DNA from: Trueperaceae bacterium
GTDB lineage: Bacteria > Deinococcota > Deinococci > Deinococcales > Trueperaceae
NCBI GenBank assembly: GCA_034520945.1
Contig: JAXHNB010000010.1
Location: forward strand, 96,001-160,000
DNA length: 64,000 bases
Reading direction: 5' to 3'
Position numbers and translations under genes: made by a program. A model generated the notes under the pieces. It did no database searches, was not told the DNA's origin, and saw nothing but the letters and a program-made list of their open reading frames with translations. Below, one piece after another: positions 3,756-54,329 of the stretch (position 1 is the first letter of the stretch; each line of letters opens with the position of its first letter).

Positions 3756-3887
3756 GGATCCTCCGGGGTGTCGGGATCGGCGTGGGTTCCGGGCATCGGG
3801 GCCGCACGGGCCGGTCCGGCCGTGGGCGTACGTGCCTAGCCTACCGACTCGCGCGCCATTGGTCCAATCGAACGTGCGCAGTATACG

Positions 3888-3902
3888 ATAGTATGCATCT
3901 AT
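3888..3902. promoter_or_regulatory. OxyR/LysR-type operator ATAG-N7-CTAT overlapping the leaderless oxyR promoter
   Basis: ATAG TATGCAT CTAT in the divergent katA-oxyR gap; TAGTAT -10 lies 6 nt before the oxyR ATG. Confidence 0.7.
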
Positions 3903-4830
3903 GGGCCGACCCGCCGGCGAGGTGACCTTTCAGCAACTCCGCTACCTGGTGGCGCTGGTGGACCACGGCCACTTCGGGCGCGCCGCCGCATCGTGCCGCG
4001 TCAGCCAACCCACGCTCAGCACCCAGCTCCGACGCTTGGAGGAACGTCTGGGGGCGTCCTTGGTGGACCGTGCCGCGTCGCCCCCCTCGGCCACGCCGTT
4101 GGGTGCGCGGGTCGCCGCCCTAGCGCGCGGGTTGCTGCTGGGACGCGAAGAGTTGATCGGTACCGCGCGCCAGGAGGCGGAGGCGCTGCGCGGCCCGATC
4201 CGCTTGGGGGTCATTCCCACCCTGGCGCCCTACCTTCTGCCGGCCCTGGCGCCGCAGGTGCGTCAACGCTGGCCGGAGGTGACGATGGAGGTGGTCGAGC
4301 GGCCCACGCACGATCTGACCGAGCTCCTCCGGCAGGGCGCGCTGGACGTGGCGCTGGTGGCCACCCGTGAGCACGACCCGTCGTGGAGCGGACGCGTGCT
4401 CGGGTACGAGCCGTTCGTGTGTTACCTCGCGCCGGCGCATCCCCTGCTTCGCTTCGACACGGTGGACGCGGCCGCGTTGCCGCACGACGAACTCTGGCTC
4501 CTCAGGGACGGGCACTGCTTCCGCGATCAGGTGCTGGCAGCGTGCGGCGCCGACGGGGCCGGGATGGTGGGCGGCGTCCGCATCGAGAGCGGCGCGCTCG
4601 GCACCTTGGGGCGCATGGTCGACACGGCGGGCGGTCTGACGCTGTTGCCGCGCATGGCGGTGGCCGCCATGGGACCGGACGAACGGGCGCGCGTCCGGCC
4701 GTTCGCGCCGCCGCGGCCCGGTCGCACGCTCCGGGCGCTGGTCCGGCGGGCGTACGCCAAGCGCGCCGTCGTGGAGGCCTTCATCGGGGCGGCGGCCGAG
4801 ACGATCGCGCGTTACGAAAAAGCGGACTGA
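3901..4830 (+). CDS. oxyR: Hydrogen peroxide-sensing LysR regulator OxyR
   Basis: LysR HTH (HFGRAAASCRVSQPTLS), GVIPTLAPYLLP, and the redox Cys pair GHCFRDQVLAAC; divergent from catalase. Confidence 0.92.
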   Translation: MGRPAGEVTFQQLRYLVALVDHGHFGRAAASCRVSQPTLSTQLRRLEERLGASLVDRAASPPSATPLGARVAALARGLLLGREELIGTARQEAEALRGPIRLGVIPTLAPYLLPALAPQVRQRWPEVTMEVVERPTHDLTELLRQGALDVALVATREHDPSWSGRVLGYEPFVCYLAPAHPLLRFDTVDAAALPHDELWLLRDGHCFRDQVLAACGADGAGMVGGVRIESGALGTLGRMVDTAGGLTLLPRMAVAAMGPDERARVRPFAPPRPGRTLRALVRRAYAKRAVVEAFIGAAAETIARYEKAD

Positions 4831-4861
4831 GAACCGATCCCGCCCGCTGCGACGTGCCTGT

Positions 4862-5395
4862 TCAGCAGCAGTTCTGGGCGGCGACGGCCGCGTCCTGTTC
4901 GGGGTCCCGTCCTTCGGGCGCAGCCGGCCCGCAACACCCGCCGGCGCTGGCCGGCTGTGCCACGGGGAGGTCGCCGACCGATCGGTCGATCGCCTTGCAG
5001 GCCACGCCCGGGGCCTCGAGGCGAACGCGCAATCCCCCCGCGGCGTCGCGCGTCACGCCTTGGACCAGGTAGGAGATCGCGGCATTCCCGGGCCTGCCCG
5101 TCTCGACCCGGACGGGGGCGTCCGGTTCGAGCGGGACGGCGCCCGCGACCTGGCGGTAGATCCCCATGAACTTCTCCGCCGTCATCGCGTGCGCTTCGGG
5201 CTCGGCCGGGGGCACGACCTGCAGCACGGTCTCGTTCCACGCGTTGGTGCGGCCGCCGCAGTCGACCGAGTGCACGCGGACCGACTTGAACTCGGTGACG
5301 TGGTAGCCGGGCGGGACGGTCCAGTCGTCGGTGACGAAGTGCAGGGAGGCGTCGGGCTGGTTGCGAAGCGCGGACAGAAAGTCTTGGGTGGTCAT
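4862..5395 (-). CDS. DUF6428-like protein (Cys-rich C-terminus)
   Basis: VPPGYHVTEFK and VDCGG..W.ET motifs, ACKA, GGCCG, terminal CC; RBS GGAAGGA before ATG 5395. Confidence 0.7.
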   Translation of the reverse strand: MTTQDFLSALRNQPDASLHFVTDDWTVPPGYHVTEFKSVRVHSVDCGGRTNAWNETVLQVVPPAEPEAHAMTAEKFMGIYRQVAGAVPLEPDAPVRVETGRPGNAAISYLVQGVTRDAAGGLRVRLEAPGVACKAIDRSVGDLPVAQPASAGGCCGPAAPEGRDPEQDAAVAAQNCC

Positions 5396-5450
5396 GACGC
5401 GTTCCTTCCAGGTCGTGGGCGTGATGGCATTGTCCTTGATCGTACGTGAC

Positions 5451-5470
5451 GCATCGACGGACGTCAATGC
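5451..5470. promoter_or_regulatory. Inverted repeat, putative ArsR/SmtB-type operator
   Basis: GCATCGACG-GA-CGTCAATGC (9-2-9, one mismatch) upstream of the DUF6428-like gene. Confidence 0.45.
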
Positions 5471-5545
5471 ACTGAACGTCATGGCCAATCGCGCCGCGCC
5501 CCGCCCTGACGGTGCGCAGCGCGCCGCACGCGGCGCGCCCGGCCG

Positions 5546-38739: not shown

Positions 38740-39087
38740 TCAGGGACCGTCGCTGCCCAGCACCTCTCCGCGGTGCACGATGCCGGCCACGCGGGGGACG
38801 TCGAGCAGGAACACGATGCCCTTGCCGGGCTCGTCCAGCTTGCCGGCCTTCACCATCGCGTTCAGCACCGAATCGGCCACGGCGTTGGACACCAACACCA
38901 GCAGGACGTCCTTTTCCGGTTCGATCGGCAGGCCGAACAGCTTTTGACCTTCGTGCACGCCGGTGCCGCGTCCGGGCACGATGGTCGCGCCCTCCGAGCC
39001 GGCCTTCTTGGCGGCCTCGACCAACGGACCGTAGCGGCCTTGCGGCACGATGGCGACGAGCAGCTTGAAACGGGCAGCGTCAGACAT
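38740..39087 (-). CDS. P-II-like protein
   Basis: AAKKAGSEGATI..GRGTG, EPEKD, PGKGIVF. Confidence 0.85.
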   Translation of the reverse strand: MSDAARFKLLVAIVPQGRYGPLVEAAKKAGSEGATIVPGRGTGVHEGQKLFGLPIEPEKDVLLVLVSNAVADSVLNAMVKAGKLDEPGKGIVFLLDVPRVAGIVHRGEVLGSDGP

Positions 39088-39802
39088 GGTTGTCCCTCCG
39101 GCGGAGTGCGAGGCTCAGCGCGAGCATGGTGATGATCGGCCCGAGGGCGATGATGCCCACCACCCCGAACCCGAGCGACCCGACGTCCTGGCCCCACAGG
39201 CCCATCGCCATGCCGGTGGTGAGCGGCAGTACGAAGTTCACGGCGACCGGGCCGGTGGCGACGGCCCCCGCGTCGAAGGCGGCCGGTACCAGGTCGCGGG
39301 GCGCCAGCAGGGTGAGCACGATCACCAGCGCATAGCCCGGCGTCAGCACCGCGGTCAGCGGCAGGCCCGCCGTGATCCGCACCACGGCGACCGCGATCGC
39401 AAGGCCGACGCCGAGGGCGATCGCCGCCGTGACCACGCGCCTGCGCATCGAGCCGGCGGAGACGTCCTCGATCTCCAGCGCCAGGATCCGCACGGCCGGC
39501 TCTGCCAGCGCCACGGCCGTGCCCAGAATGAAGGCGAACCCCACCACGCTGAGCAGCGGCGCGTCGACCAGGCGTTCGCCGATCGCGACGCCCATGGGGA
39601 TCAGGCTCATCTTCGCCCCTACGATGAACAGGAAGAAGCCGACCATCGCCATTGCGATGCCGGTGATTACGGCTCGGGGGTTTCGTACGCCGCTGCGCAG
39701 CACCACGAACTGGAAGAAGGCGATCAGGACCAGGACCGGCACGGTGGCCTCGATCACTTCGATTCCGGCGTCCAGCACGATGTGCGCGATGTCGGTGGTC
39801 AT
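39080..39802 (-). CDS. DUF1538 membrane protein
   Basis: AEPAV, PGY, AFDAGAVATGP, GFG. Confidence 0.85.
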   Translation of the reverse strand: MTTDIAHIVLDAGIEVIEATVPVLVLIAFFQFVVLRSGVRNPRAVITGIAMAMVGFFLFIVGAKMSLIPMGVAIGERLVDAPLLSVVGFAFILGTAVALAEPAVRILALEIEDVSAGSMRRRVVTAAIALGVGLAIAVAVVRITAGLPLTAVLTPGYALVIVLTLLAPRDLVPAAFDAGAVATGPVAVNFVLPLTTGMAMGLWGQDVGSLGFGVVGIIALGPIITMLALSLALRRRDNHV

Positions 39803-40503
39803 CCGCTCCCTCCGAACATGCCCCAGAGGAGGACCATGAGCACGGGGCCGATCGATGCGATGGCCATCAGGCCGAAGCTGGACCCCATGCGGCTCCGCCC
39901 GCCCAGCACCGCGGACACGCCGACGCCCAGGGCGATCAGGAACGGCACCGTCATCGGCCCGGTCGTCACCGCGCCCAGATCGAAGGCCTGCGTGACGACG
40001 TCGTCGCGGGCGAACCAGCTGAGCGCCACCACGAGCACGTAGCCGGGCACGAGGAAATACGCGATCGGGATCGCGAACGCGTTTCGGATCAGCGCCAGCA
40101 CCGAGAACAGGCCCAGACCCGCGGCCGCCGCAGCGATCAACGCGCCGCGGTTCACGGCGTCACCGACGGATTCCTGCAGTTGAAAGGTCAGCAGGCGCAC
40201 GTCCGGTTCGGCGACGGTCAGCACGATGCCGAGCAGGAACCCGAACACCAGCAACAGCGTGAACGCGCGGCGTTGGATGAAGGCCGAGCCGATCCCTTCG
40301 CCCAGGGGGAGCAGCCCGAGCTTGGCCCCCTGCAGGAACAGCACGAAGCCGGTGACGGTGCAGACCAGTCCGACCAGGACCTGGGCGAATTCGGCCGCCG
40401 GCATGCGAAGCACGAAGACCTGCGCCGCGATCATGAACGCGATCGCGGGCGCCAAAGAGACGGAGGTTTCGATCAGTTCGCGCCGGAGGTCGCCGAAGCT
40501 CAT
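39799..40503 (-). CDS. DUF1538 membrane protein
   Basis: AEPDV, AFDLGAVTTGPMTVPFLIALGVG, SFGL.A.ASIGP. Confidence 0.87.
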   Translation of the reverse strand: MSFGDLRRELIETSVSLAPAIAFMIAAQVFVLRMPAAEFAQVLVGLVCTVTGFVLFLQGAKLGLLPLGEGIGSAFIQRRAFTLLLVFGFLLGIVLTVAEPDVRLLTFQLQESVGDAVNRGALIAAAAAGLGLFSVLALIRNAFAIPIAYFLVPGYVLVVALSWFARDDVVTQAFDLGAVTTGPMTVPFLIALGVGVSAVLGGRSRMGSSFGLMAIASIGPVLMVLLWGMFGGSG

Positions 40504-40680: not shown

Positions 40681-40896
40681 TCAGGCGTCGCGCCGTACGT
40701 TGCGGCCGGTACGAACCCCGAACAGGGTGTATAGGGGACAGAACCCCGCCGCCGCCGTGACGAGAAGCACCGCCCCGACGATGCCGATGGCCCAACTCCA
40801 TCCCAGCGGCACCACGCCCACGAGCGCCACTACGAGCGCAATGGCCCCCAGAAGGGCACGGATTCCTCGGTCCAGGCCAGCCATGTTTCGCGTCAT
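40681..40896 (-). CDS. DUF2892 (YgaP-like) membrane protein
   Basis: NM...DR.IR..G, T...GFCPLY..FG..T; RBS AAGGAGG. Confidence 0.85.
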   Translation of the reverse strand: MTRNMAGLDRGIRALLGAIALVVALVGVVPLGWSWAIGIVGAVLLVTAAAGFCPLYTLFGVRTGRNVRRDA

Positions 40897-41017
40897 GGGT
40901 GTCCTCCTTCGAGGTCGACGATAGAACGCACACGCACGCCTCGTAAGGGCCAAAAGGCCTTGTCGAGCGGGGAGGCGTGGGGGGTACGCAGCGTCCGCGC
41001 CCAGGACGTATAGCCCC

Positions 41018-41046
41018 TTGCCACCCCACCGGGGGTGGGTTAACCT
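41018..41046 (+). promoter_or_regulatory. copA promoter with CsoR-like operator
   Basis: TTGCCA-17-TAACCT with palindrome CCACCCC-ACCG-GGGGTGG (41021-41038) spanning the spacer. Confidence 0.65.
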
Positions 41047-41110
41047 CACAGCACGACGGACGGGACGGCACGCCCCACGACGGGGCCGCCGGAGTCCCCT
41101 GGGAGGTCAA

Positions 41111-43612
<2,502 letters not shown>

Positions 43613-43623
43613 GGGGCCGCCTC

Positions 43624-43794
43624 GAGCCACGCCTGCGCGCGGCGGATGAAGCGCACCCGTTCCGCTGCAGCCGCGGGAAAGGTGCGGTACCCACGGGCGC
43701 TGCGCTGGGCCTGCAACGCCCCGCGTTCCTTTCAATAGCGCAACGTCTTGACGCTCTCGCCGGTTTCGCGTGCACGCTGTCCGATCGGCTTCAT
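43624..43794 (-). pseudogene. MerR-family regulator remnant
   Basis: MKPIGQRARETGESVKTLRY*KERGALQAQRSARGYRTF...ERVRFIRRAQA; in-frame TGA at 43732-43734 and no effector domain. Confidence 0.75.
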
Positions 43795-43947
43795 GGGCGC
43801 ATTGCGCCACCGTTGCTGGCCTCCTGCAGTGCGCGGGCCAGCGTCCGCCGGCTGGGCCATCCGCGCAGGTACAGGAGCTCGACCTGGATCATGCCGCGAG
43901 GCTACGGCTCCCCCGCGGGGGAGCGTCGAGCGCCCGTGGCCCAGCGG

Positions 43948-44553
43948 TCAGTCCGCCCAGCCGTCCAAGTGCGCGTGATCGTTGATGGACACGAAGGTGA
44001 CGCCGCGTGCCTCGAAGCGCAGGCGCGAGATGCTGGTGTTCCTGGGCGCGATGCGCCACGCGCCGTCCTTGGGGTGCCCGAGGATGCCGTACAGGGCGCT
44101 CACGATGGCGCCGCCGTGGCTGAACGCCGCGAAACGGCCCTGCTCGGGCAGGTCGTGCAGGAAGGCACGCACCCGCCCGGCAAGATCGCCGAACGACTCG
44201 CCACCTGGAACGCGCCGCGCGACCGGATCCTCGCGCCAGTGCCGGGCCTGCGCGGCCAGCTCGTCGCTCAGGGCGTCCCAGCGCTGGCCTTCCAGCACGC
44301 CGTACGACAGCTCCCGGAGGCGCGCGTCGCACCGGATCGCCGCGCCCGGCAGCGCGGTCTCTGCGGTCACGCGGGCGCGCTCGAGGTCGGACGCGAACAC
44401 CTCGTCGAACGTCACCGATCCCAGGCGGCACGCCAACGACCGGGCCTGTGCCAACCCCGTCGCGTTCAGCGGCACGTCGGACGCGCCCTGGATCCGCCCG
44501 TTCAGGTTCCAGTCGGTCTCGCCGTGCCGAATCAACCACACCTCTCGCACCAT
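43948..44553 (-). CDS. Histidine phosphatase family protein
   Basis: LIRHGETDWN, SDLERA..TA, LRE..YG, PGGES, SHGG. Confidence 0.92.
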   Translation of the reverse strand: MVREVWLIRHGETDWNLNGRIQGASDVPLNATGLAQARSLACRLGSVTFDEVFASDLERARVTAETALPGAAIRCDARLRELSYGVLEGQRWDALSDELAAQARHWREDPVARRVPGGESFGDLAGRVRAFLHDLPEQGRFAAFSHGGAIVSALYGILGHPKDGAWRIAPRNTSISRLRFEARGVTFVSINDHAHLDGWAD

Positions 44554-44719
44554 CGCTCCCGCGTGCAGCCCTGGCCCGCGACTGCGGCGGCATCCTACCG
44601 CACCCCCGCCGGGGCGCGCGGCCCGATCGGGGCCCGGTCAAGCCGCTTACATGATCGAGCTTGTCAGCTTCTTAGGGTGGGCGCATGTCTCGTCGTTCCC
44701 CGTCCCCCGCGACGCCGCC

Positions 44720-45553
44720 ATGAGCGGCGCCCCCGACCTCCGCGTGTTCGTGTCGGCCCAGGAGGCCCGCGCCCTGGCCGAGGCCGAGCCGGTCCAGTTC
44801 GTCGACGCCCGCAGCCCCCGCGCCTACCGCGAGGAACACCTGCCCGGCGCGATCAACCTGGCCGCTCGCGAGCTGAACCCCACCGAGGACGGGGTCCGGA
44901 CCCTCGTCACGGCGGAACGGTTGGCCGAGCGGCTCGCGGACCTCGGCCTCGGCGCGACCCCCGTGATCGTGTACGCCGCCGCGGGCGGCGCGGACGCCGC
45001 GCACGTGTGGTGGACGCTGGACGCCTTCGGCCATCGCGCCGTCCACCTCTTGGACGGCGGGATGCGGGCCTGGCGCGGGGCCAACCTGCCCGTCGAGGAC
45101 GGGACGCCGGCGGCGGCGCCGGAGGGACCACGCTTCGAGCCTCGTCTCGACGACGCCCGGCGCATCGAACTGCCCGAACTCCGGGACCGCCTGGAAGACG
45201 AGGATCTGCGGATCCTGGACACGCGCTCGTGGGACGAGTTCACCGGCTCGATGGTCGCGGCGCGACGCGGCGGCCACGTGCCCGGCGCCGAGCACCTCGA
45301 TTGGGAGGACCTGCTGGACCCCGAGGGCCGGCTGCGGCCCCGTGACGCACTCCAGCGCGCCCTGCGGCGCTACCTGGAGGCACCGGAGGTGGCGGTGTAC
45401 TGCCAGAGCGGCGTCCGCGCTGCGCACACCTGCGGCGTGCTGCGGGAGCTCGGCCACGCCGGCGCGCGGCTGTACCTGGGGTCGTGGGGCGAGTGGGGCA
45501 ACCGCTCCGACACGCCCGTCGTCACCGAAACCCCCGAGGAGGTGGGATCGTGA
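44720..45553 (+). CDS. Two-domain sulfurtransferase (rhodanese)
   Basis: HLPGA, LLDGG..AW, GHVPGA, active loop YCQSGVRA, LYLGSWGEW. Confidence 0.9.
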   Translation: MSGAPDLRVFVSAQEARALAEAEPVQFVDARSPRAYREEHLPGAINLAARELNPTEDGVRTLVTAERLAERLADLGLGATPVIVYAAAGGADAAHVWWTLDAFGHRAVHLLDGGMRAWRGANLPVEDGTPAAAPEGPRFEPRLDDARRIELPELRDRLEDEDLRILDTRSWDEFTGSMVAARRGGHVPGAEHLDWEDLLDPEGRLRPRDALQRALRRYLEAPEVAVYCQSGVRAAHTCGVLRELGHAGARLYLGSWGEWGNRSDTPVVTETPEEVGS

Positions 45554-46740
45554 ATCGTCGCGAGTTCTTGAAGGTGTCCGCCGCCGGCGTGGCCTTGGCC
45601 AGTGTCGGCCCGTTGGGCCACGTCTGGGCGCAGGGCCAGGACGGTCGCCGCGACCTGATCGTGGTGTCCAACGGCGGCGACGCCGACACCGAACCGAGCG
45701 TCAGTTTGATCGACCCCGAGACCTTGCAGGTGCTGGCGACCCTTCCCCTTGCGGACGGGTTCTCGCTCCCAGCCACGCGGTGGCACTTCGCACGCGACGA
45801 AATCTGGACGGGCGGCCCCAACGACGCGGTCAGCGTCTACCGCCTCTCCAGCGGCGGCAAGGTCACCGAGCTGGTCACCGGCTCCAGCCAGAACTACACC
45901 GAGATCACGCCGGACGGCCGCTTCGTGATCGACGCGGCGCGCTTCGAGGATCGGTACCTCAAGATCGTCGCCGACCCCAATGATCCCGAGTATGGCCGCC
46001 CGGCCGCGCAGTTCGACACCTACGACGGCGCCAGCCCCTGCGACATGACCATGACCCGCGACGGCCGCTACGCCTACGTGCCCGACCGGGGCGGCGACAC
46101 CCTGTCGGTGCTGCGCATCGACCCGTTCGAGCGCATCGCCGTGATCCCCATGGAGTCGTTCACGGGCGCGCCGCTGGAGCCGTACATGGCGACGGTGTCG
46201 CCCGATGGGCACTACCTGCTGGTCGAGAACGCCAAGGTGGAGGGCGGCTCGGAGACCGGAAGCGAGTCGGTGTTCGACCTGTCCGACCCCGAAAACCCCG
46301 TCGAGGTCGCCCGTCTCACGCCCGAGGATGGGCTCGGCGTGGGGCCCATCACCAGCGAGTTCACCCCGGACGGCCGCTACGGCATCGTCATCTGCCGCGA
46401 CTCCTCGGAACTGTCGATCATCGAGCTAAAGACGGCGTCGGTGGTGCAGAGCGTGACCTTCCCCGAAGGGTCGAACCCGATCACCGGCACGTTCGCCTAC
46501 CGGCCGTCGGCCGAGACGTTCTTCGTCCCGCTGCCGGGCCGTGACGCGGTGGCGGCGGTGACGCTCCCCGACTTCCAGGTCGCCACTCTGATCCCGGTCG
46601 GCGCGCGTCCCGTCGGCGTGGTGTACCTGGAGGCGTCCGTGCCCGAGCGTAGCGAGGCGGGGCACCTCTTGGGCGTGGCGTTGGCGTCGGGCCGCACCTT
46701 CCCCGCGGGCTGCCCCGACCGTTGCTGCGGACCGGTGTGA
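45550..46740 (+). CDS. Tat-exported YncE/YVTN-like beta-propeller protein
   Basis: NRREFLK twin-arginine signal; repeated TPDGR/SPDGH/TRDGR blades; C-terminal GCPDRCCGPV. Confidence 0.75.
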   Translation: MNRREFLKVSAAGVALASVGPLGHVWAQGQDGRRDLIVVSNGGDADTEPSVSLIDPETLQVLATLPLADGFSLPATRWHFARDEIWTGGPNDAVSVYRLSSGGKVTELVTGSSQNYTEITPDGRFVIDAARFEDRYLKIVADPNDPEYGRPAAQFDTYDGASPCDMTMTRDGRYAYVPDRGGDTLSVLRIDPFERIAVIPMESFTGAPLEPYMATVSPDGHYLLVENAKVEGGSETGSESVFDLSDPENPVEVARLTPEDGLGVGPITSEFTPDGRYGIVICRDSSELSIIELKTASVVQSVTFPEGSNPITGTFAYRPSAETFFVPLPGRDAVAAVTLPDFQVATLIPVGARPVGVVYLEASVPERSEAGHLLGVALASGRTFPAGCPDRCCGPV

Positions 46741-47660
46741 GCACGGCCGGCGCGTCCCGCCGCGGCGCCGTGGCGCGGGGCGTCGAAGCGGTCCTGGCGG
46801 CGGCGTTGCTGGCGGCGGCCGGCCTGGGCCTGTACAGCGTGAACCGCCCCCTGCCGAACGCCGACGCGCTGCTGACCGACAGCGTGCCGGCGGGCGCCGT
46901 CGTGGTGGACGCCCGCGGCTCGCTGGCGTACCGCCAGGGACACCTGCCCGGCGCGCGCTCGGTGTGGTCGCGGTCGTTGCTCTCGTTCGACGGGGCGGTG
47001 CCCGGGATGCTGGCCGCGCCTGAGGCCCTGGCCGAGGAACTCCGTGCGGCCGGTCTGACGCCGAACGACCGGGTGGTCGTGTATGACGACGGCGACGGGC
47101 GCGATGCGCCGCTGGTGCTGTTGGTGTTGCGCGCCTTCGGCCTGGACGCGCGCCTCCTGGACGGCGGGCTGGAGGGCTGGCGCGCTGCGGGGGGTGCGCC
47201 CCAGAGCGGCGGGCCCGGAGAGGTGACGCCCAGCGACGCCCCCTTCACCTTCGACACGCAGCTGGTGGTGTCTGGCGATGAGGCGGCCGAGCACCTGGCC
47301 GACGACGCCATCGCGCCGGTCGACGTGCGCGCCGCGGGCGCGTACGGCGCCGAACACCTGGAAGGCGCCATACGGTTGGACGCCGAGGCCCTGCTTCCGG
47401 ACGGGTCGTTGCCACGCTTCTCCACGCTGGACGCGCAACTCCGGCAGGTCCGCCTGACCCGCGACACGCACCCGCTGATCTACGGCGCCGACGTGCGCCA
47501 GGCGGCGCGCGCGTGGCTGACCCTCGCCGCGTATGGGACCGAGCACCTGCACGTCTACCGCGGTCCCTTCGAGGGCCTGGCGCAGGCCGGCCTGCCCCTG
47601 TCCCGAACCGCGGCCGCCCAGGCGACCAGCACCCGGTCCAGCAGCGTATGTTGGCGCTGA
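46737..47660 (+). CDS. Membrane-anchored tandem rhodanese-fold protein lacking the active-loop Cys
   Basis: N-terminal hydrophobic helix; VDAR..Y..GHLPGA, LLDGGLEGW, HLEGA; only Cys is in the C-terminal SSSVCWR. Confidence 0.75.
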   Translation: MSTAGASRRGAVARGVEAVLAAALLAAAGLGLYSVNRPLPNADALLTDSVPAGAVVVDARGSLAYRQGHLPGARSVWSRSLLSFDGAVPGMLAAPEALAEELRAAGLTPNDRVVVYDDGDGRDAPLVLLVLRAFGLDARLLDGGLEGWRAAGGAPQSGGPGEVTPSDAPFTFDTQLVVSGDEAAEHLADDAIAPVDVRAAGAYGAEHLEGAIRLDAEALLPDGSLPRFSTLDAQLRQVRLTRDTHPLIYGADVRQAARAWLTLAAYGTEHLHVYRGPFEGLAQAGLPLSRTAAAQATSTRSSSVCWR

Positions 47661-47733
47661 CGCTGGCACGGACCAGCGTCGGACGGCCTACGCCGGTGCG
47701 CGACCGGCCGTCCCTGTCGGGCGGGCGCGGCCG

Positions 47734-48759
47734 ATGCTGAGCGTGCTGGCCTCGGGCCTGGCGGTGGGGCTGGCGTTCGGCTACGCCCTGCAGCGCGGCC
47801 GCTTCTGCACCAACACCGGTTTCCGCGACGCGCTGTTGATCAACGACGGCACGTTGTTGCGGGCCTGGGCGTTGGCGGTGGTGGTGCAGCTGCTGGGCGT
47901 GACGGCATTGTCCGGCGCGGGCCTGCTGCCCGTGTCGGTGCCGCCGTTCTGGTGGGCCGCCAACGTGCTGGGCGGCGTCACGTTCGGTGTCGGCATGGTG
48001 CTGGCCGGCGGCTGCTCCAGCGGGACCTGCTACCGCGTCGGCGAGGGGCTGGCCGGGTCGCTGGTCGCGCTGATCGCGTTCGGCGTCGGGATCGTGGTGA
48101 TGGCGCGCGGCGCGCTGGCGCCGCTGCAGGACGCACTGCAAGGCTACGAGATCGGCGCCGAGGGCGGCTCGTTGACGGTGGCCAACCTGCTGGGCGTCTC
48201 GCCATGGGTGGTGGTGGTGCCGGTGACGATCGGCGCCGCCGTCTGGTTCTGGCGGGCCGGGGCCAGCCGCTACCGCAGCGGCGGCTGGGATTGGCGTGCC
48301 GCCGGCGCGTCCCTGGGCCTGATCGGCATCGCCGCCTGGTTGGCGTCCAGCGGCACGGGCCGCCCCTTCGGGCTGTCCATGACCGGCCCGCTACGGAGCT
48401 GGTTCGAGGGCCTGTTCGCGGGGGACCTGGTGGTGGACTGGGGCAGCATGCTGATCGTGGGCCTGCTGCTGGGCTCGTTCCTGTCCGCCTGGTCCAACGG
48501 CGAGCTCCGCTGGCGCGTCCCCAAGGGTGGGCGGCTGTTGCAGTCCGGCGTCGGTGGGCTGGCGATGGGGTTCGGCGCGCAACTGGCGGGCGGCTGCACC
48601 ATCGGGCACAGCCTCACCGGCCTGTCGGTGTTGTCGGTCGGCAGCATCGTCACCACCCTGGGCATCGTGGCCGGCGCGTGGGGCATGGCGACCTGGCTGT
48701 TCGTACTGCCCGCCCGCCGCATGCAGCGCGAGATGGCCGCGCCGGCCGCGACCGACTGA
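47734..48759 (+). CDS. YeeE/YedE family sulfur-compound transporter
   Basis: QRGRFC, LAGGCSSG and LAGGCTIGH (the three conserved Cys); multiple TM helices. Confidence 0.9.
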   Translation: MLSVLASGLAVGLAFGYALQRGRFCTNTGFRDALLINDGTLLRAWALAVVVQLLGVTALSGAGLLPVSVPPFWWAANVLGGVTFGVGMVLAGGCSSGTCYRVGEGLAGSLVALIAFGVGIVVMARGALAPLQDALQGYEIGAEGGSLTVANLLGVSPWVVVVPVTIGAAVWFWRAGASRYRSGGWDWRAAGASLGLIGIAAWLASSGTGRPFGLSMTGPLRSWFEGLFAGDLVVDWGSMLIVGLLLGSFLSAWSNGELRWRVPKGGRLLQSGVGGLAMGFGAQLAGGCTIGHSLTGLSVLSVGSIVTTLGIVAGAWGMATWLFVLPARRMQREMAAPAATD

Positions 48760-48842
48760 CCCCGGCCCGTTGGCGTCACGACCGTGCGCAACGTGCGCGC
48801 ATCGCCGGCGGTCACGACCGTGCACCCCGACGAGGAGGCTTC

Positions 48843-49073
48843 ATGTCCGACACCACCACGCTCGACGTCCGCGGCGAGATCTGCCCCTACCCCCTGTTCG
48901 AAACCAAGAAGGAGCTCGAAGCGCTCCCCTCCGGCGCGACGCTGGAGGTGCTGATCGACTACCCCCTGGCGTTGGACAACGTGACGCGCTGGGCGGAGAG
49001 CGCCGGCCACGAGGTGACCCGCGTCGAGGAGCTCGGCGCCTCGGAGTGGCGGATCGTGCTGACGCGCGCATGA
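48843..49073 (+). CDS. TusA-family sulfur carrier (YeeD/YedF-like)
   Basis: LDVRGEICPYP, LEVLID; RBS GAGGAGG. Confidence 0.9.
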   Translation: MSDTTTLDVRGEICPYPLFETKKELEALPSGATLEVLIDYPLALDNVTRWAESAGHEVTRVEELGASEWRIVLTRA

Positions 49074-49123
49074 CGCCTCGGGCCGGCGCTCGTCTCCCGG
49101 CGCTCGTCCCCAGGCGCGGCGAC

Positions 49124-50128
49124 TCACCCGGCGAACAGGTCGTCGCCGGTGATCGCCTTCGCCTTGCGGGCGTACGCCGTAGGGCGCTTGTGGAAGAAGT
49201 CGACGTGCTTGGCGGCGTGCAGCTCCTCCTCGAACCACAGGCACGCCCCGACCGCCTCCGGGTCGGGATTCCACATCGGCGCCGAGCCGACCGCCTCCAG
49301 GGCCGCGTCGAAGCGGTGCTGCAGGAACGCCTCGATCGTCGACACGGGCAGGAACGCCAATTCGCCCTCCGCGAAGATCCACGCCAGGATGGCGCGCTCC
49401 GCGTCGAAGCCCTGCCGGCATGCCTGGCGCACCTCTGCCTCGAAGGTGGCGTCGAACCAGTGGGGGCGTTCCTCGCGCAGGAGACGGATCAGTTGGTAGC
49501 CGAACAGGCCGTGAATCTGCTCCTCGGCGCTGGTGGCGTCGACCACGTTGGCGACGCCCTTGAACAGGTTCCGCTCGCGCTGGAACGCCTTCATGATCAA
49601 AAACTGCCCGAACAGGCTGACGTGCTCCACGAACGCGCTGAAGGTCAGCAGCGTCCGCGCGAAGGCGCGGCCATCGCGCTCCTCGTCGCCGGTCGGGCGG
49701 GTGGCGAGGGCGTTCTCTAGGAAGGCCAGGCGCGTCCGCATGGCGGGCACGCGGTCCAGGCCGGCGAAGGCGTCTTCCAGGCCGAGGAGGCGCAGCAGGT
49801 GCGCGTAGGCGTCCTGGTGCCGCACTTCGGACTCGGCGAAGGTGTAGCCGACGGCGCCCACTTCGGGTTTGGGGTAGCGCTTCATCAGGTCGCCCCAGAA
49901 CGTCTTGACCGCCACCTCCACCTGCGCGATGGCCAACATGGTGCGGGTGATGGCGGTTCGTTCCGGCGCGGAGACGCGGGCATGGAAGTCCTGCACGTCG
50001 CCTTCGAGATTGAACTCGGTGTGCAGCCAGTAGGCGTGCCTGATGGCGTCCCGGTACGGCAACAGTTCCGGGTACTCGACCGGCCGCAGTTGGACGCGTC
50101 GTTCCAGCAGCGATCGGGCGGCCGGCAT
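49124..50128 (-). CDS. nrdB: Class I ribonucleotide reductase beta subunit
   Basis: W.HTEF....D..D, ESEVRH..AY, FVE..SLF..F, EEQIH, DFF.KRPT.Y. Confidence 0.92.
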   Translation of the reverse strand: MPAARSLLERRVQLRPVEYPELLPYRDAIRHAYWLHTEFNLEGDVQDFHARVSAPERTAITRTMLAIAQVEVAVKTFWGDLMKRYPKPEVGAVGYTFAESEVRHQDAYAHLLRLLGLEDAFAGLDRVPAMRTRLAFLENALATRPTGDEERDGRAFARTLLTFSAFVEHVSLFGQFLIMKAFQRERNLFKGVANVVDATSAEEQIHGLFGYQLIRLLREERPHWFDATFEAEVRQACRQGFDAERAILAWIFAEGELAFLPVSTIEAFLQHRFDAALEAVGSAPMWNPDPEAVGACLWFEEELHAAKHVDFFHKRPTAYARKAKAITGDDLFAG

Positions 50129-51834
50129 CACGCCTCGCACGCGGAGCAGGTCAGCAGCTCGCGACTGAATTCCTGCGCCGCATTGAGCGAGTGCTGGTAG
50201 TACAACGTCTTCACGCCCCGTTCCCACGCCTCCAGGTGCAGGGCGTTCAGGTCGCGCGCCGGCGTGGCCGGATGCACCATCAGATTCAGCGACTGGCTCT
50301 GATCCAGGTGCTCCTGCCGCTGGGCGGCCTGCACGATCAGGTCCAGCTGGCTCACCTCGCCGAAGGTGGCGAAGACGCGCTTCTCCTCGTCGCTGAGGAC
50401 GTCCAGCTGCTGCACGCTGCCGCCGTGATGCAGGACGTCGCGCCACACCTTCGGCGTGTCGGCGCCCCGCTCCGCCAGGGTCTCCTGCAGGGCGGGATTG
50501 CGGAAGGTGGTGACCGACTTGGCGAGGTCGCGGACGTGGTAGTTGGAGCGGAACGGCTCGATGGATGGCGACACCTGGCCCATGATGAACGAGCTCGACG
50601 TGGTCGGGGCGACCGCCGTCAGGGTGGCGTTGCGACGGCCGTAGCCCTCCAGCAGCGCCGGCTCGCCGTAGCGGCGGGCCAGCTCGGCGGAGGCCTCCTC
50701 GGCCGCCGCGCGCAGGGTGCGAAACGCCTCGCGGTTCATCGCGGCGGCGGGGAGGCTCCCCAGCGGGATGCGGTGCGCCTGCAGGTAGCTGTGCCAGCCC
50801 AACACCCCGATGCCCAGGGCGCGGTGACGCTGCGCGAAGCGCCGGGCGCGCGCCAGGTGCGGCACCGAGGCGGACCGCTCGATGAACTCGCTCATCACCG
50901 CGTCCAGGAAGTAGGTGAGCAGCTGGACGGCGTCGGTGTCCTTCCACTCGTCGTAGTGGGCGAGGTTCATGCTGGACAGGTCGCACACGAACGACTCGTC
51001 CTCCTGGACGGGCAGCATGATCTCGCTGCACAGGTTGCTGGAGCGGATCTCCAGGCCGCGGTCGCGGTACACGTCGGGCGCGCCGCGCGCCGCGTTGCCG
51101 GCGAACAGGACGTAGGGCATGCCCACCTCGCTGCGGCACTGCAGGACCCGCGCCCAGGTGGCCCGCTTGTCCGGATCGCCGTCCCGCATGGCTCGAAGCC
51201 AGTCGTCGGGCACCACCACGCCGAAGAACAGGTTCTGGATGGGGTGCCCGTCGCTGCGGATCCGAAGGAACTCCTCGACGTCCGGATGGTCGATCGGCAG
51301 GTACGCCGCGAACGATCCCCGGCGGGTGGCGCCCTGCTTGGTGACGTCGATGAGCGCGTCGAACAGGCGCATGAAGGTGACGGCCCCTTCGGAGCAGCCG
51401 TTGTCGCGGATGGGTGCGCCGCGCCCGCGCAGGTCGCCGAAGTAGGCGCTGGTGCCTCCGCCGTACTTGCTCATCATGCCCACCTCGGCGGCGGTGCCCA
51501 GGATGCCGTCCATGCTGTCCGGCACGTAGGACCCGAAGCAGGAGATCGGCAGGCCGCGCCGCAACCCGAAGTTGGCCCAGATCGGCGAAGCCAGCGAGTA
51601 CCAGCCGCGCGCCAGGTAGTCGTAGAACCGCTCCGCGAAGCGGTCCATGCCGGGCAGCAGCGCTTCGGCGCGCTGGGCGATCTGCCATAGGCGCGCTTCG
51701 GGCGTGACGCCGGGCAGCAGGTAGCCGCGTTGCAGGAAGGTGCGGGCGTCGGCGTTCAGCCAGGCGAACGGGGGACGATCGGCGTGCTGCGGAACGCGTG
51801 ACGGCGCGTGGCTGCGTGCACGTGCGGAATACAT
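50128..51834 (-). CDS. nrdA: Class I ribonucleotide reductase alpha subunit (short, no ATP cone)
   Basis: SPIWANFG..RGLPISCF, RRGS, SNLCSEI, APTTSSS, KTLYY, C-terminal CSACEA. Confidence 0.93.
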   Translation of the reverse strand: MYSARARSHAPSRVPQHADRPPFAWLNADARTFLQRGYLLPGVTPEARLWQIAQRAEALLPGMDRFAERFYDYLARGWYSLASPIWANFGLRRGLPISCFGSYVPDSMDGILGTAAEVGMMSKYGGGTSAYFGDLRGRGAPIRDNGCSEGAVTFMRLFDALIDVTKQGATRRGSFAAYLPIDHPDVEEFLRIRSDGHPIQNLFFGVVVPDDWLRAMRDGDPDKRATWARVLQCRSEVGMPYVLFAGNAARGAPDVYRDRGLEIRSSNLCSEIMLPVQEDESFVCDLSSMNLAHYDEWKDTDAVQLLTYFLDAVMSEFIERSASVPHLARARRFAQRHRALGIGVLGWHSYLQAHRIPLGSLPAAAMNREAFRTLRAAAEEASAELARRYGEPALLEGYGRRNATLTAVAPTTSSSFIMGQVSPSIEPFRSNYHVRDLAKSVTTFRNPALQETLAERGADTPKVWRDVLHHGGSVQQLDVLSDEEKRVFATFGEVSQLDLIVQAAQRQEHLDQSQSLNLMVHPATPARDLNALHLEAWERGVKTLYYQHSLNAAQEFSRELLTCSACEA

Positions 51835-52091: not shown

Positions 52092-54329
52092 TCAATGGAA
52101 GTCGATCCGCTGGTTTGTGCCGGTGATGCGCCAGTAGCCGCCGACGGTGCTCGTCAGCGGGCCCGTGTGGCGGCCCGACCAACTTCCGACCTCGCCGAAC
52201 GTCATGTCCGCTGCCTGCAGCAGTACCCCGTCGGGGTCGGACCGGTCGGGCCGCTCGTCGGAGAGACTCCATGCGGTGCCCTGGGCGCGTTCGAGGACGT
52301 TGTTTCCTGGATCGCCGGGCGTGCCGAAGTCCAGCATGGCCGGTTCGTCGCGGATCTGGACGTTGTCGGCGAGGTTCGCCCGGAAGTCGCTGCCGCGCAC
52401 GCGGAGCTCACCGCCGTCCGCTGCGTAGGCCAGGCCGTTGTTCGCGTTGTCCCGTACGGTGACGCCCTCCAGGGTCAGGTCGCCGTCCGTGACGTAGAAG
52501 CCGTTGTGATTCTCGGCGTAGGTTCCGCCTTCGACCTGCACGTCCGCGCTGGTGCTCACGTAGGCGCCGGCGCCGGGATCGGGCGCGCCGCGTGAGGTGA
52601 CGTTCCGGAACGTGGCCGCGGCGGCGCCGGTCACGACGAGATTGTCCTGGCCGTTGTCGCGTACGGTGGCGCCGTCCACGATCAGGTCGCTGGGGCCGCC
52701 GGCGAAGATGCCCGCCCGGTCGGTGAACTGCGCGGGGTTGGCCTGGCCGTTCTCCGCGTATCGGCCGCCGCTCACCTCGAGTTGTCCCTCGTGGGCGCGC
52801 GCGCCCGAGAACCCGTTCTGCTCGACCGTGGCGTCGATCAGCACCACCTGGGAGTCATCACTTCCGTCCAGCAACACGCCGTGCTCGCTGCTGTCGCGAA
52901 TGGTGGCGTCCCGAACGCGAACGGCCGCATCCTCGACGAGGACGCCGGTCCCGTTGCCGACCAGTCGGCTCCCACTACGTACGGCCACGGGCGTGTCGTC
53001 GTCGGGGGCCAGCCAGGCGTGCACGCCGACGTCGTTGTTCTCGAGCGTCACGTTCGCCAGCGTGAAGCCGGCCGCCATCGCGCGAACGCCCGCGCCGTAG
53101 GCACGGACGGTGGTGGAATCGATGCGGTGCTCGCGCCCGATCATCGAGAACCCGTTGCCGCTTCCGTCGCCTACGGCCAGGCTGTCGCGCACCACCAAGG
53201 TGCCGCCGGGCACCGGGAGGAATCCGGCCGCGTCGCCGGTCGAGGCGCACGGCGCCGCCCCGTCGCAGCGGACGCGGGTGAGGTAGCCCGCGGTGTCGCC
53301 GTCCGGTAGGTGCAGCCCGCGCCCCGAGGTTTCGAGGGTGAGGTCCTGGAGGAACAGCTTCAGCGTCCCCTCGGCGTCGTTCGGTCGTTCCAAGCTGAGC
53401 ACGTCGCTTCTGCCGGCGTCCAGCACCACCCCGTCGCGGCTCTCCCCTTCCACGAACAGGGAGCGCCGCACCGTATAGTCGTACGGCTCGCTGTCGTACC
53501 GCCCGTCGAACAAAAAGACCTGCCCCACGTCCTGCGTGTCGGCCACCTCGAGGGCGCGCTCCACGGTGGCGACCGGCGCCTCGCGCGTGCCGGGGTCGCC
53601 GTCGTCCCCCTCGGGGCTCACGTAGACGGTGTTGCTGGGCGTGCCGGGATCGGCGCTCACCGTGACGCGGTCGCTGGCGGTTTCCTCGCCGTCCGACACC
53701 GTCACCTGCAGGGTGTAGGCGCCGCTGTCCTCCGGCGTGAAGGTCGGGGTGGGCGTATCGCCGCCGTTCAGGTCGGGCGCGTCGCCGGGCGCGGTGACGA
53801 AGCTCCAGGCGAAGTTGAGGTCGTCGCCGTCCGGGTCGCTCGAGCCGGTCGCGTCCAACGTCACGGACTCCCCCACGGTGACGTCCCGGTCCGTGCCCGC
53901 GTCGGCGTTCGGCGGCTGGTTCGGGTCGGAATCGTCCTGGGAGGCGGTGATCTCCGTGGTGGCCCGGTCCTCGGCGTCCCCATCGGAGACGCGCACGCGC
54001 ACCGTATAGCCCCCGGCCACGTCGGGCGTGAGTTCGGTCGTGGTGCCGCCCGCCGCGGACAGCGAGGCAGTGCTGGCCGCGGGCGCGTCCGTGAGGTCCC
54101 AGGCGAACGTCAGCCCGTCTCCGTCGGGGTCGGTGGAGCCGCTGGCGTCCAGCGTCACGGTGTCGCCGACCGTCGCGGCCTGGTCCGGGCCGAGGCGGGC
54201 CTCTGGAGGGCGATTGCCACCGTTCGATCCACCCGAGCCGCCGCATGCGGCCACGAGCACCAGGATGGAGGCTACGGCGCCGATCCATCCGGCGTGCCGC
54301 ACGCCGACGACGCCATCGCCGCGCGTCAT
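52092..54329 (-). CDS. Lipoprotein with two PKD/Ig-like repeats and a right-handed beta-helix domain
   Basis: VAAC lipobox; two N.PP.A..G.D..V..G..VTLDA.GS.DPDGD.L.FAW repeats; YVSP.GDD..PGT..AP followed by beta-helix repeats. Confidence 0.8.
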   Translation of the reverse strand: MTRGDGVVGVRHAGWIGAVASILVLVAACGGSGGSNGGNRPPEARLGPDQAATVGDTVTLDASGSTDPDGDGLTFAWDLTDAPAASTASLSAAGGTTTELTPDVAGGYTVRVRVSDGDAEDRATTEITASQDDSDPNQPPNADAGTDRDVTVGESVTLDATGSSDPDGDDLNFAWSFVTAPGDAPDLNGGDTPTPTFTPEDSGAYTLQVTVSDGEETASDRVTVSADPGTPSNTVYVSPEGDDGDPGTREAPVATVERALEVADTQDVGQVFLFDGRYDSEPYDYTVRRSLFVEGESRDGVVLDAGRSDVLSLERPNDAEGTLKLFLQDLTLETSGRGLHLPDGDTAGYLTRVRCDGAAPCASTGDAAGFLPVPGGTLVVRDSLAVGDGSGNGFSMIGREHRIDSTTVRAYGAGVRAMAAGFTLANVTLENNDVGVHAWLAPDDDTPVAVRSGSRLVGNGTGVLVEDAAVRVRDATIRDSSEHGVLLDGSDDSQVVLIDATVEQNGFSGARAHEGQLEVSGGRYAENGQANPAQFTDRAGIFAGGPSDLIVDGATVRDNGQDNLVVTGAAAATFRNVTSRGAPDPGAGAYVSTSADVQVEGGTYAENHNGFYVTDGDLTLEGVTVRDNANNGLAYAADGGELRVRGSDFRANLADNVQIRDEPAMLDFGTPGDPGNNVLERAQGTAWSLSDERPDRSDPDGVLLQAADMTFGEVGSWSGRHTGPLTSTVGGYWRITGTNQRIDFH

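Follow-up and report, generated by a model that had tools for sequence, protein, structure and literature searches.

A conserved five-gene cassette linking a YeeE/TsuA-type channel with two cysteine-tailed proteins in a Trueperaceae bacterium

The closest described relatives of the system discussed here are the YeeE/YeeD (TsuA/TsuB) proteins. The YeeE-YeeD pair of Spirochaeta thermophila takes up thiosulfate, with YeeD being essential for uptake and modified at cysteine (PMC11073785). As to how sulfur reaches YeeE-type importers from outside in sulfur oxidisers, a hand-over from SoxYZ has only been proposed: in Hyphomicrobium denitrificans, SoxYZ, a periplasmic carrier with a C-terminal cysteine, would feed the YeeE-like importer SoxT1A, from which sulfur would pass to Rhd442/TusA (PMC11582611). 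In Sulfolobaceae, TetH, an exported hydrolase of the propeller type, has been suggested to cooperate with a YeeE importer (PMC11323534). Here, we describe a cassette of five genes from a Trueperaceae bacterium (assembly GCA_034520945.1, contig JAXHNB010000010.1), lying within a stretch of 64,000 nucleotides (contig positions 96,001 to 160,000) that was analysed as a whole and is called the window below. The cassette encodes, in this order, an active cytoplasmic rhodanese, a beta-propeller with a twin-arginine translocation (Tat) signal and a tail of three cysteines, a membrane-anchored rhodanese-fold protein without the catalytic cysteine (the pseudo-rhodanese), a YeeE/TsuA-type channel and a TusA/YeeD-like carrier.

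Judged from sequence comparison, the five genes appear to form one functional, horizontally exchanged module that is real and conserved and for which a plausible mechanism can be outlined. We tentatively read it as an extended YeeE/YeeD sulfur-acquisition module with extracytoplasmic, cysteine-armed partners, with a presumed sulfur substrate, inward direction, protein contacts and covalent carriage, and we hold this reading to be possible, if not quite probable.

The five proteins of the cassette

The propeller, encoded by the second gene (45550-46740, + strand), has 396 residues, and its assignment to the seven-bladed YVTN/lactonase type is based on the translation, the signal family TIGR01409, the YVTN repeat (39 bits, cut-off 27.85) and an AlphaFold2 model. 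Its N-terminus, with the motif NRREFLK, reaches 20.7 bits for the TIGR01409 twin-arginine signal against a cut-off of 16.7, the Pfam family TAT_signal giving 19.1 bits, below its cut-off of 22.7, and the protein is predicted to be exported by the Tat pathway. It contains five cysteines (164, 282, 388, 392 and 393) and ends in GCPDRCCGPV. In a homologue search that listed 120 clusters, 93 of the closest 99 (E-values up to 4e-64) end in C-x3-C-C-G plus one to four residues, the six exceptions being three C-terminally short proteins, one with a diverged end, one with glycine for the first cysteine and one divergent protein; from P0110 onward, the listed relatives have the cysteine-free end PRGVIVR instead. 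A pair of arginines near the N-terminus is found in 82 of the same 99 clusters, and Cys164, Asp165, Met213, Thr215, Glu226, Asp274, Cys392 and Cys393 are invariant in 88 aligned propellers with identities down to 33%. The AlphaFold2 model has a mean predicted local distance difference test (pLDDT) score of 91.4, with low values only at the signal peptide and at the last six residues (about 45), and it portrays the tail as a flexible C-terminal end.

By profile, the propeller matches PDB entry 1L0Q with an E-value of 2.5e-31, and the same entry is the top Foldseek match; further Foldseek neighbours include NosZ, thiocyanate dehydrogenase, cd1 nitrite reductase and NirN, and fold searches by Foldseek and in the ESM Atlas returned generic seven-bladed propellers and nothing more specific. 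Three named assignments were tried for this protein and rejected. The HdrB-type CCG domain (PF02754) gives no profile match and has the tripeptide CCG alone in common with it. For tetrathionate hydrolase, TetH, which is a propeller of the PQQ (pyrroloquinoline quinone)-like type, the Pfam matches with E-values up to 0.01 include no PQQ-repeat family. Quinohemoprotein amine dehydrogenase was suggested by a beta-subunit-like propeller and by the C-W dipeptide as a cofactor precursor, but TIGR03907 gives 21 bits against a cut-off of 223, besides a generic Foldseek match.

The pseudo-rhodanese is the product of the third gene (46737-47660, + strand; alternative start, a TTG at 46722) and comprises 307 residues, characterized by its translation, Pfam, AlphaFold2 and Foldseek. 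It matches Pfam Rhodanese with 90.7 bits over two domains, and the best Foldseek matches are human MST (E-value 5.7e-15), SseA, bovine TST and YnjE. The catalytic cysteine is replaced by glycine (IYGADVRQ, as opposed to YCQSGVR in the product of gene 1), and an alignment of 21 family members with the active rhodanese P0001 shows Gly, Ser or Ala at this position throughout. Since the fold is present and the active-site cysteine absent, the protein is to be regarded as a rhodanese-fold protein and not as a canonical sulfurtransferase. Its sole cysteine, Cys305, lies in the SSSVCWR sequence of a Ser/Thr-rich tail (ATSTRSSSVCWR). The homologues form a sharply separated group of 37 clusters, with E-values to 3e-25 before ordinary SseA-like proteins begin, and each of the 37 contains exactly one cysteine, always in a C-terminal C-W and mostly in S-S-V-C-W-R/Q. 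Remoter members, with tails such as RSTCW, GSLCW and STTCW and several of them with twin-arginine N-termini, came from a profile search over 1.84 billion representatives; fused forms did not appear among longer proteins, which is weak evidence.

Arginine residues precede a single hydrophobic helix at the N-terminus of the pseudo-rhodanese, and the AlphaFold2 model (mean pLDDT 92.8) places this helix at residues 8-36, residues 302-307 having values below 50. Export of the family is suggested by this helix following the arginines, by the twin-arginine N-termini of the remote members and by the Tat lipoprotein signals of the haloarchaeal counterparts described below, and the protein of the window would be membrane-anchored and exported-looking, with its N-terminus inside and its C-terminus outside. 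In view of the confident model and the presence of the family in several phyla, the gene is not a pseudogene. A preliminary description of this DNA had already pointed to both tails, GCPDRCCGPV on a Tat-exported propeller and a single cysteine in SSSVCWR on a rhodanese without the loop cysteine. Both tails are present as described, the propeller signal and fold agree with it (its export is predicted), and the terminal cysteines, whose conservation it had suggested checking, are kept in the homologues of both proteins; its worry that the cysteine-less rhodanese might be cytoplasmic or decayed is answered by the predicted export and the intact, widespread family.

The channel is encoded by gene 4 (47734-48759, + strand; 341 residues), which matches PF04143, Sulf_transp, with 251.3 bits (cut-off 27) over profile positions 1-309 of 310 and belongs to this family. 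Compared with S. thermophila YeeE (6LEO; E-value 7.5e-51), Cys25, Cys94 and Cys288 align with C22, C91 and C293, and these three family cysteines are kept in all 11 cassette copies. A fourth cysteine, Cys99 (GGCSSGTCYRV), had been missed in the preliminary description, which counted three; it lies five residues past the central channel cysteine and is present in 11 of the 11 bacterial cassette copies, the same position being Trp, Leu or Val in seven comparators (E. coli TsuA, Paracoccus, Moellerella, three haloarchaeal YeeE proteins and S. thermophila YeeE). The NCBIfam TsuA equivalogs NF052577 and NF041049 score 234.8 bits (cut-off 400) and 179.2 bits (cut-off 645), respectively, and YedE/FdhT scores 86.7 bits, also below cut-off; with scores under the equivalog cut-offs, gene 4 is best called TsuA-like and not a named TsuA equivalog. 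The same genome contains a second, split YeeE-like pair with PmpA/PmpB-like halves (L021, G000:C6:532145-535450), situated beside a gene for a CsoR/CstR-family repressor.

The carrier encoded by gene 5 (48843-49073, + strand; 76 residues) is a member of the TusA family (PF01206, 84.4 bits, cut-off 28.6), with the carrier cysteine, Cys14, in a CPYP motif, as the preliminary description had it. Its score for the TsuB equivalog is 44.8 bits, short of the cut-off of 147.5, and that for YedF is 46.2 bits. In the S. thermophila YeeE-YeeD fusion (8J4C), the YeeD portion is matched with an E-value of 1.7e-11, GEICPYP aligning to GEVCPIP, and TM0983 is matched with an E-value of 9.8e-19; the motif GEICPYPL recurs in each of 10 cassette loci. 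The remaining protein, a cytoplasmic tandem rhodanese of 277 residues encoded by gene 1 (44720-45553, + strand), matches Pfam Rhodanese (PF00581) with 120.9 bits over two stretches and NCBIfam SseA with 103.3 bits, below the cut-off of 250. It lacks a signal peptide and has the cysteine of a catalytic rhodanese, Cys228, in the loop YCQSGVRAAH of its C-terminal domain, so that it agrees with its earlier labelling as an active-type cytoplasmic enzyme; the loop is identical in all 10 cassette loci examined.

Arrangement and distribution

With the propeller as seed, 18 genome loci were obtained, and the order rhodanese, propeller, pseudo-rhodanese, YeeE and TusA recurs, as far as the contigs extend, in six of them, namely L002-L004 from Trueperaceae, L011 and L018 from Alphaproteobacteria and L017 from Candidatus Bipolaricaulia. 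In metagenome loci seeded with the pseudo-rhodanese, the propeller gene lies directly upstream in 9 of 9, the active rhodanese gene precedes in all 6 loci that extend far enough upstream, and YeeE and TusA genes follow downstream in all 7 loci that reach that far. Among 121 Trueperaceae genomes (the tallies of propeller, SelD and PF04143 in this set include one unpublished genome, G033), 20 contain the propeller and five the pseudo-rhodanese, and the YeeE of the window type (P0004) occurs in the same five genomes and as one decayed remnant in a sixth, adjacent in every case; a scan of the phylum, covering 301 genomes, gave these five and the remnant as its sole matches. The gene content common to 11 compared cassette loci is precisely the five genes, the pseudo-rhodanese stands beside the propeller in all finds, and the five-gene arrangement is more than chance. 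A decayed cassette is preserved at L038 (G036:C1:1583826-1587089), where the rhodanese and TusA genes are complete, the pseudo-rhodanese gene is gone, and the propeller and the channel are left as residues 1-120 and 18-101, respectively. A gene for a membrane-anchored CPPC thioredoxin directly follows tusA in three related loci, L002 (11589-12188, + strand), L003 and L024, and in L028 a DsbD gene (3175-5481, - strand) converges on tusA and abuts it; such neighbours fit exported cysteines that cycle and need reduction.

A haloarchaeal counterpart, with the parts in another arrangement, was reached via a search for plasmid-borne YeeE genes and consists of a 12-gene cluster (L043) on a plasmid of Natrononativus amylolyticus (NZ_CP101459.1) and an 11-gene cluster (L044) on a plasmid of Halorubrum salinarum (NZ_CP053942.1). 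Both plasmids encode a homologue of the propeller that bears a Tat lipoprotein signal, the tail C-x4-C-x-C-G and, in common with the bacterial proteins, the motifs PCDMT, VEN, GSES and ITSE, and an overlapping gene encodes a Tat-lipoprotein tandem rhodanese with the cysteine-less loop YGDDNVD and the end GDFSCTG. The clusters further comprise a second YncE-like propeller, a SaoD/DsrE-family protein, a divergent YeeE scoring 170.4 bits for YedE/FdhT and 141.7 bits for TsuA, a TusA-family protein, a GlpE-like rhodanese, a pyridoxal phosphate enzyme of the cysKM family (227 bits, below cut-off), a SAMP-like ThiS/MoaD protein, the E1 enzyme UbaA (469 bits, above cut-off) and a desampylase (139 bits, above cut-off). 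The neighbourhood of cysKM-like and SAMP/UbaA genes points to a context of sulfur assimilation.

The propeller also occurs alone. Stand-alone bacterial copies retain the Tat signal and the tail, and because the propeller occurs without the other cassette genes, some activity independent of YeeE must belong to it. Its settings include one conserved set of seemingly unrelated neighbours, one position beside ribosomal protein genes and one beside cas3. The conserved set (L007-L010, L012 and L013) consists of genes for an LVIVD protein, a flavoprotein, a creatininase, a cupin, a URO-D-like protein and an FAA hydrolase; the propellers concerned are close relatives by tree, and the set gave no functional lead. 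In this tree, a quick maximum-likelihood estimate from a small sample, rooted on archaeal sequences and with support from the Shimodaira-Hasegawa-like approximate likelihood ratio test (SH-aLRT) only, stand-alone bacterial propellers nest among cassette-linked ones, and at least three state changes are required by well-supported branches. Further haloarchaeal propellers, with about 43% identity, likewise stand alone, with neighbours such as a TauE-type exporter, a peroxiredoxin, an AhpD-like protein, flavin adenine dinucleotide (FAD) oxidoreductases or a DUF3179 protein. Genes of the DUF3179 type lie near propeller genes in the Trueperaceae locus L002 (14720-15964, - strand) and in the haloarchaeal loci L044 (from 13094) and L046 (8615-9676, - strand).

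In the window, the five genes are intact and co-oriented on the + strand, in DNA with a G+C content of 0.70-0.74, and are enclosed by two minus-strand neighbours, a divergent histidine-phosphatase gene upstream (43948-44553) and a convergent pair of ribonucleotide-reductase genes downstream (49124-51834). Given GTG starts, genes 1 and 2 and genes 2 and 3 overlap as GTGA at 45550-45553 and 46737-46740, in line with the overlapping stop and start codons and the common orientation noted in the preliminary description. The start at 44685 given there has to be corrected, since that ATG is out of frame with the rhodanese, whose true start is at 44720; it opens a 12-codon open reading frame (MSRRSPSPATPP, 44685-44723, + strand) in the 166-nt leader, the stop of which overlaps the start of gene 1 as ATGA and which may be a chance product of G+C-rich DNA. 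No Rfam match is found in 43500-49500, no promoter-like site near the cassette, and terminator-like sites are at chance level. Further upstream, a gene for a P-type ATPase with two HMA domains (41018-43612, + strand) adjoins one for a YgaP-like transmembrane-domain protein (40681-41049, - strand), and a similar HMA-type ATPase is encoded 3 kb from the cassette at L017. Two DUF1538 membrane-protein genes lie side by side at 39080-40503 (- strand), and an open reading frame of 745 residues at 52092-54329 (- strand) has a hydrophobic N-terminal stretch followed by repeated Asp/Gly/Thr-rich segments.

Proposed function and rival explanations

In the extended sulfur-acquisition module that we favour, the Tat-exported propeller would act on or capture external polysulfide, elemental sulfur, polythionate or thiosulfate by means of its conserved face (Cys164, Asp165, Met213 and Glu226) and its mobile C-terminal arm of three cysteines, and it would be the likely mobilising or catalytic part. 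The tethered pseudo-rhodanese would take the sulfur over on its lone tail cysteine and present it to the channel, YeeE would pass it through the membrane, and the TusA/YeeD-like protein would receive it inside on Cys14, from where the active rhodanese could hand it on via Cys228, most likely to cysteine and thiolated cofactors. The role of an adaptor is suggested for the pseudo-rhodanese by its strict linkage to the propeller and the window-type YeeE, its membrane tether and its lone cysteine on a flexible tail. A wider generalisation, which we regard as doubtful, would be that YeeE-family channels are fed by dedicated extracytoplasmic proteins carrying covalent sulfur on flexible C-terminal cysteine arms, a partner class undescribed so far and spread over Bacteria and Archaea, in which a tri-cysteine propeller mobilises insoluble or polymeric sulfur and a pseudo-rhodanese serves as the adaptor, so that the channels would be supplied with protein-delivered sulfane sulfur and not just with free thiosulfate. 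If the tails do carry sulfur, YeeE-type channels accept protein-bound sulfur. The proposal, if true, would give names to two families now listed as hypothetical, YncE-like or SseA-like, and would bear on the sulfur supply of heterotrophs in salt pans and sediments. With its mutable exported cysteines, a cassette-specific channel cysteine and an archaeal version, the cassette represents a compact test case of five genes.

Several observations weigh against this proposal. In twelve of the 18 genome loci, no gene for rhodanese, YeeE or TusA lies within 8 kb of the propeller gene, and PF04143 is matched in 9 of the 20 propeller-bearing Trueperaceae genomes as compared with 44 of the 101 others, which is no enrichment. 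In one genus, 8 of 10 genomes have the propeller and none of the 10 has PF04143; the tail is kept there, and its role cannot be the feeding of YeeE alone. The relay from periplasm to cytoplasm envisaged in the preliminary description is accordingly supported in part: the genes, the tails and the linkage of the pseudo-rhodanese to yeeE and tusA (5 of 5 Trueperaceae genomes, 7 of 7 metagenome loci) agree with it, and the propeller is not tied to YeeE. The solved YeeE moves free thiosulfate (PMC11073785) and requires no partner on the outside. The persulfide or thiosulfonate that the tails would bear, like the contacts between the proteins, is something we infer from sequences, and the tail cysteines, Cys164, Met213, the acidic residues and the Tat export would fit a metal or cluster site as well. 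It is two haloarchaeal plasmids that supply the assimilation context, the flanks of the bacterial cassettes being without cysteine-synthesis genes. The counts are not independent, since several of the genome loci come from the same assemblies as the genomes and L024 and L025 are near-identical. A sulfite-reductase domain is absent in this genome and present in 23 of the 121 family genomes, including the cassette genome G020; its lack was considered as an explanation for the cassette and dropped as non-discriminating, 98 of the 121 Trueperaceae genomes being without the domain.

A less probable alternative would dispense with the covalent relay and see in the two exported proteins an enzyme and a binding protein. 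The propeller, as a periplasmic enzyme, would convert a sulfur compound to thiosulfate, with its tail cysteines and Cys164 binding a cofactor or metal or forming a redox disulfide, and the pseudo-rhodanese would hold this anion non-covalently in a cradle free of cysteine, in the manner of a tethered substrate-binding protein, its tail cysteine being structural or regulatory, e.g., through a disulfide to a partner. Such an enzyme would be consistent with the Tat signal in 82 of 99 propeller clusters, with the invariance of Cys164, Asp165, Met213, Glu226, Cys392 and Cys393 in the 88 sequences, with the retention of the tail in genomes without a YeeE-family gene, and with the cofactor-bearing proteins among its Foldseek neighbours (NosZ, thiocyanate dehydrogenase, cd1 nitrite reductase and NirN). 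The transport of free thiosulfate by YeeE homologues (PMC11073785) and the TetH and YeeE proposal for Sulfolobaceae (PMC11323534) point the same way. However, the propeller has no conserved histidine, unlike copper propellers, and matches no cofactor-binding family, and its tail is predicted to be flexible and not packed. A structural role would hardly explain why each of the 37 pseudo-rhodanese clusters keeps a lone cysteine three residues from the end, and the thioredoxin and DsbD neighbours fit exposed, cycling thiols.

The two remaining explanations change the substrate or the direction. Selenium or tellurium might be captured, with selenite-derived selenotrisulfides bound by the cysteine tails and selenium delivered towards selenophosphate synthetase by YeeE, TusA and rhodanese. 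Vicinal and clustered thiols do bind selenium, SelD is encoded in this genome (G000:C2:425887-426813, - strand; 359 bits, above cut-off) and in four of the five cassette genomes, and a slightly higher score for YedF than for TsuB in gene 5, together with a higher one for YedE/FdhT than for TsuA in the haloarchaeal YeeE, would agree with such a role. It becomes very unlikely, though, with a cassette genome lacking a SelD match (G020, 98% complete and in one contig) and with a window channel closer to TsuA than to YedE. SelD is moreover found in 62 of the 121 family genomes regardless of the cassette, so that the linkage does not discriminate, it lies on another contig than the cassette, and the haloarchaeal clusters adjoin cysteine-synthase-like and SAMP genes, not selenium genes. 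The least probable explanation is an outward or protective role, in which the module would export or present reactive sulfur, or the tri-cysteine arm would bind a soft metal (Cu, Hg or As) in the periplasm for detoxification, with sulfur supplied from inside by YeeE, TusA and rhodanese. C-terminal cysteine arms are known from mercuric reductase (Cys-Cys) and thioredoxin reductase, and the HMA-domain ATPase genes near the cassette in the window and at L017 would suit a metal-related function. The DsrE-like neighbour in Haloarchaea best fits the non-SAO SaoD/DsrE branch, which is reported beside metal-transport genes (bioRxiv 10.1101/2022.07.06.499078). Against this role, the ATPase gene is no conserved companion of the cassette, linked genes for a metal-resistance regulator or chaperone are absent, and the solved homologues are importers (PMC11073785).

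Comparison with described systems

The importer core of the proposed sulfur-acquisition module, and the idea that a periplasmic cysteine carrier feeds a YeeE-like channel, are already known or proposed, and the module as such is unnamed in print. The full-text literature searched describes neither the two tailed families nor the five-gene set, in keeping with the view of the preliminary description that the extended architecture was new, the general idea having been put forward for SoxYZ and SoxT1A. With that model (PMC11582611), the cassette would share the principle of a C-terminal cysteine on a periplasmic protein, followed by a cytoplasmic rhodanese and TusA. Its exported proteins differ in fold, being a propeller and a tandem rhodanese, and in their tails (C-x3-CCG and S-x-C-W). 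The cassette has no constant sox or sHdr surroundings, and the whole genome contains no match to SoxY (PF13501), so that neither tailed protein is a carrier of the SoxY type. The likeness of the propeller to TetH is limited to that of an exported propeller beside a YeeE importer.

Among the sulfurtransferases SseA, TST, MST and the periplasmic YnjE, the product of gene 1 is a regular active member, and the pseudo-rhodanese has the same two-domain fold. The pseudo-rhodanese family differs from them in the Gly, Ser or Ala replacing the catalytic cysteine, in the sole cysteine on a disordered tail, and in being membrane-anchored or Tat-exported. The propeller shares its fold and repeat signature with YVTN, YncE and lactonase propellers, but the tri-cysteine tail and the PCD motif are found in none of the relatives listed, and no function is transferable from them. 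Protein-thiocarboxylate sulfur assimilation is represented by CysO, CysM and Mec in mycobacteria. The haloarchaeal versions of the cassette adjoin genes for a ThiS/MoaD-like protein, UbaA, desampylase and a cysKM-family enzyme, and may be compared with SAMP/UbaA assimilation, although such genes are not linked to the bacterial cassette and their tie to the importer is by neighbourhood alone.

The closest correspondence remains that with YeeE/YeeD (TsuA/TsuB). Genes 4 and 5 of the cassette are homologous to this pair, with the channel cysteines and the carrier cysteine aligned, and they are adjacent to each other, like tsuA and tsuB in E. coli. Whereas the known system consists of two genes and has no extracytoplasmic partner, the cassette has three more genes fixed to this core, and its channel contains a fourth cysteine (GGCSSGTC) that is present in all 11 cassette copies and in none of the seven comparators.

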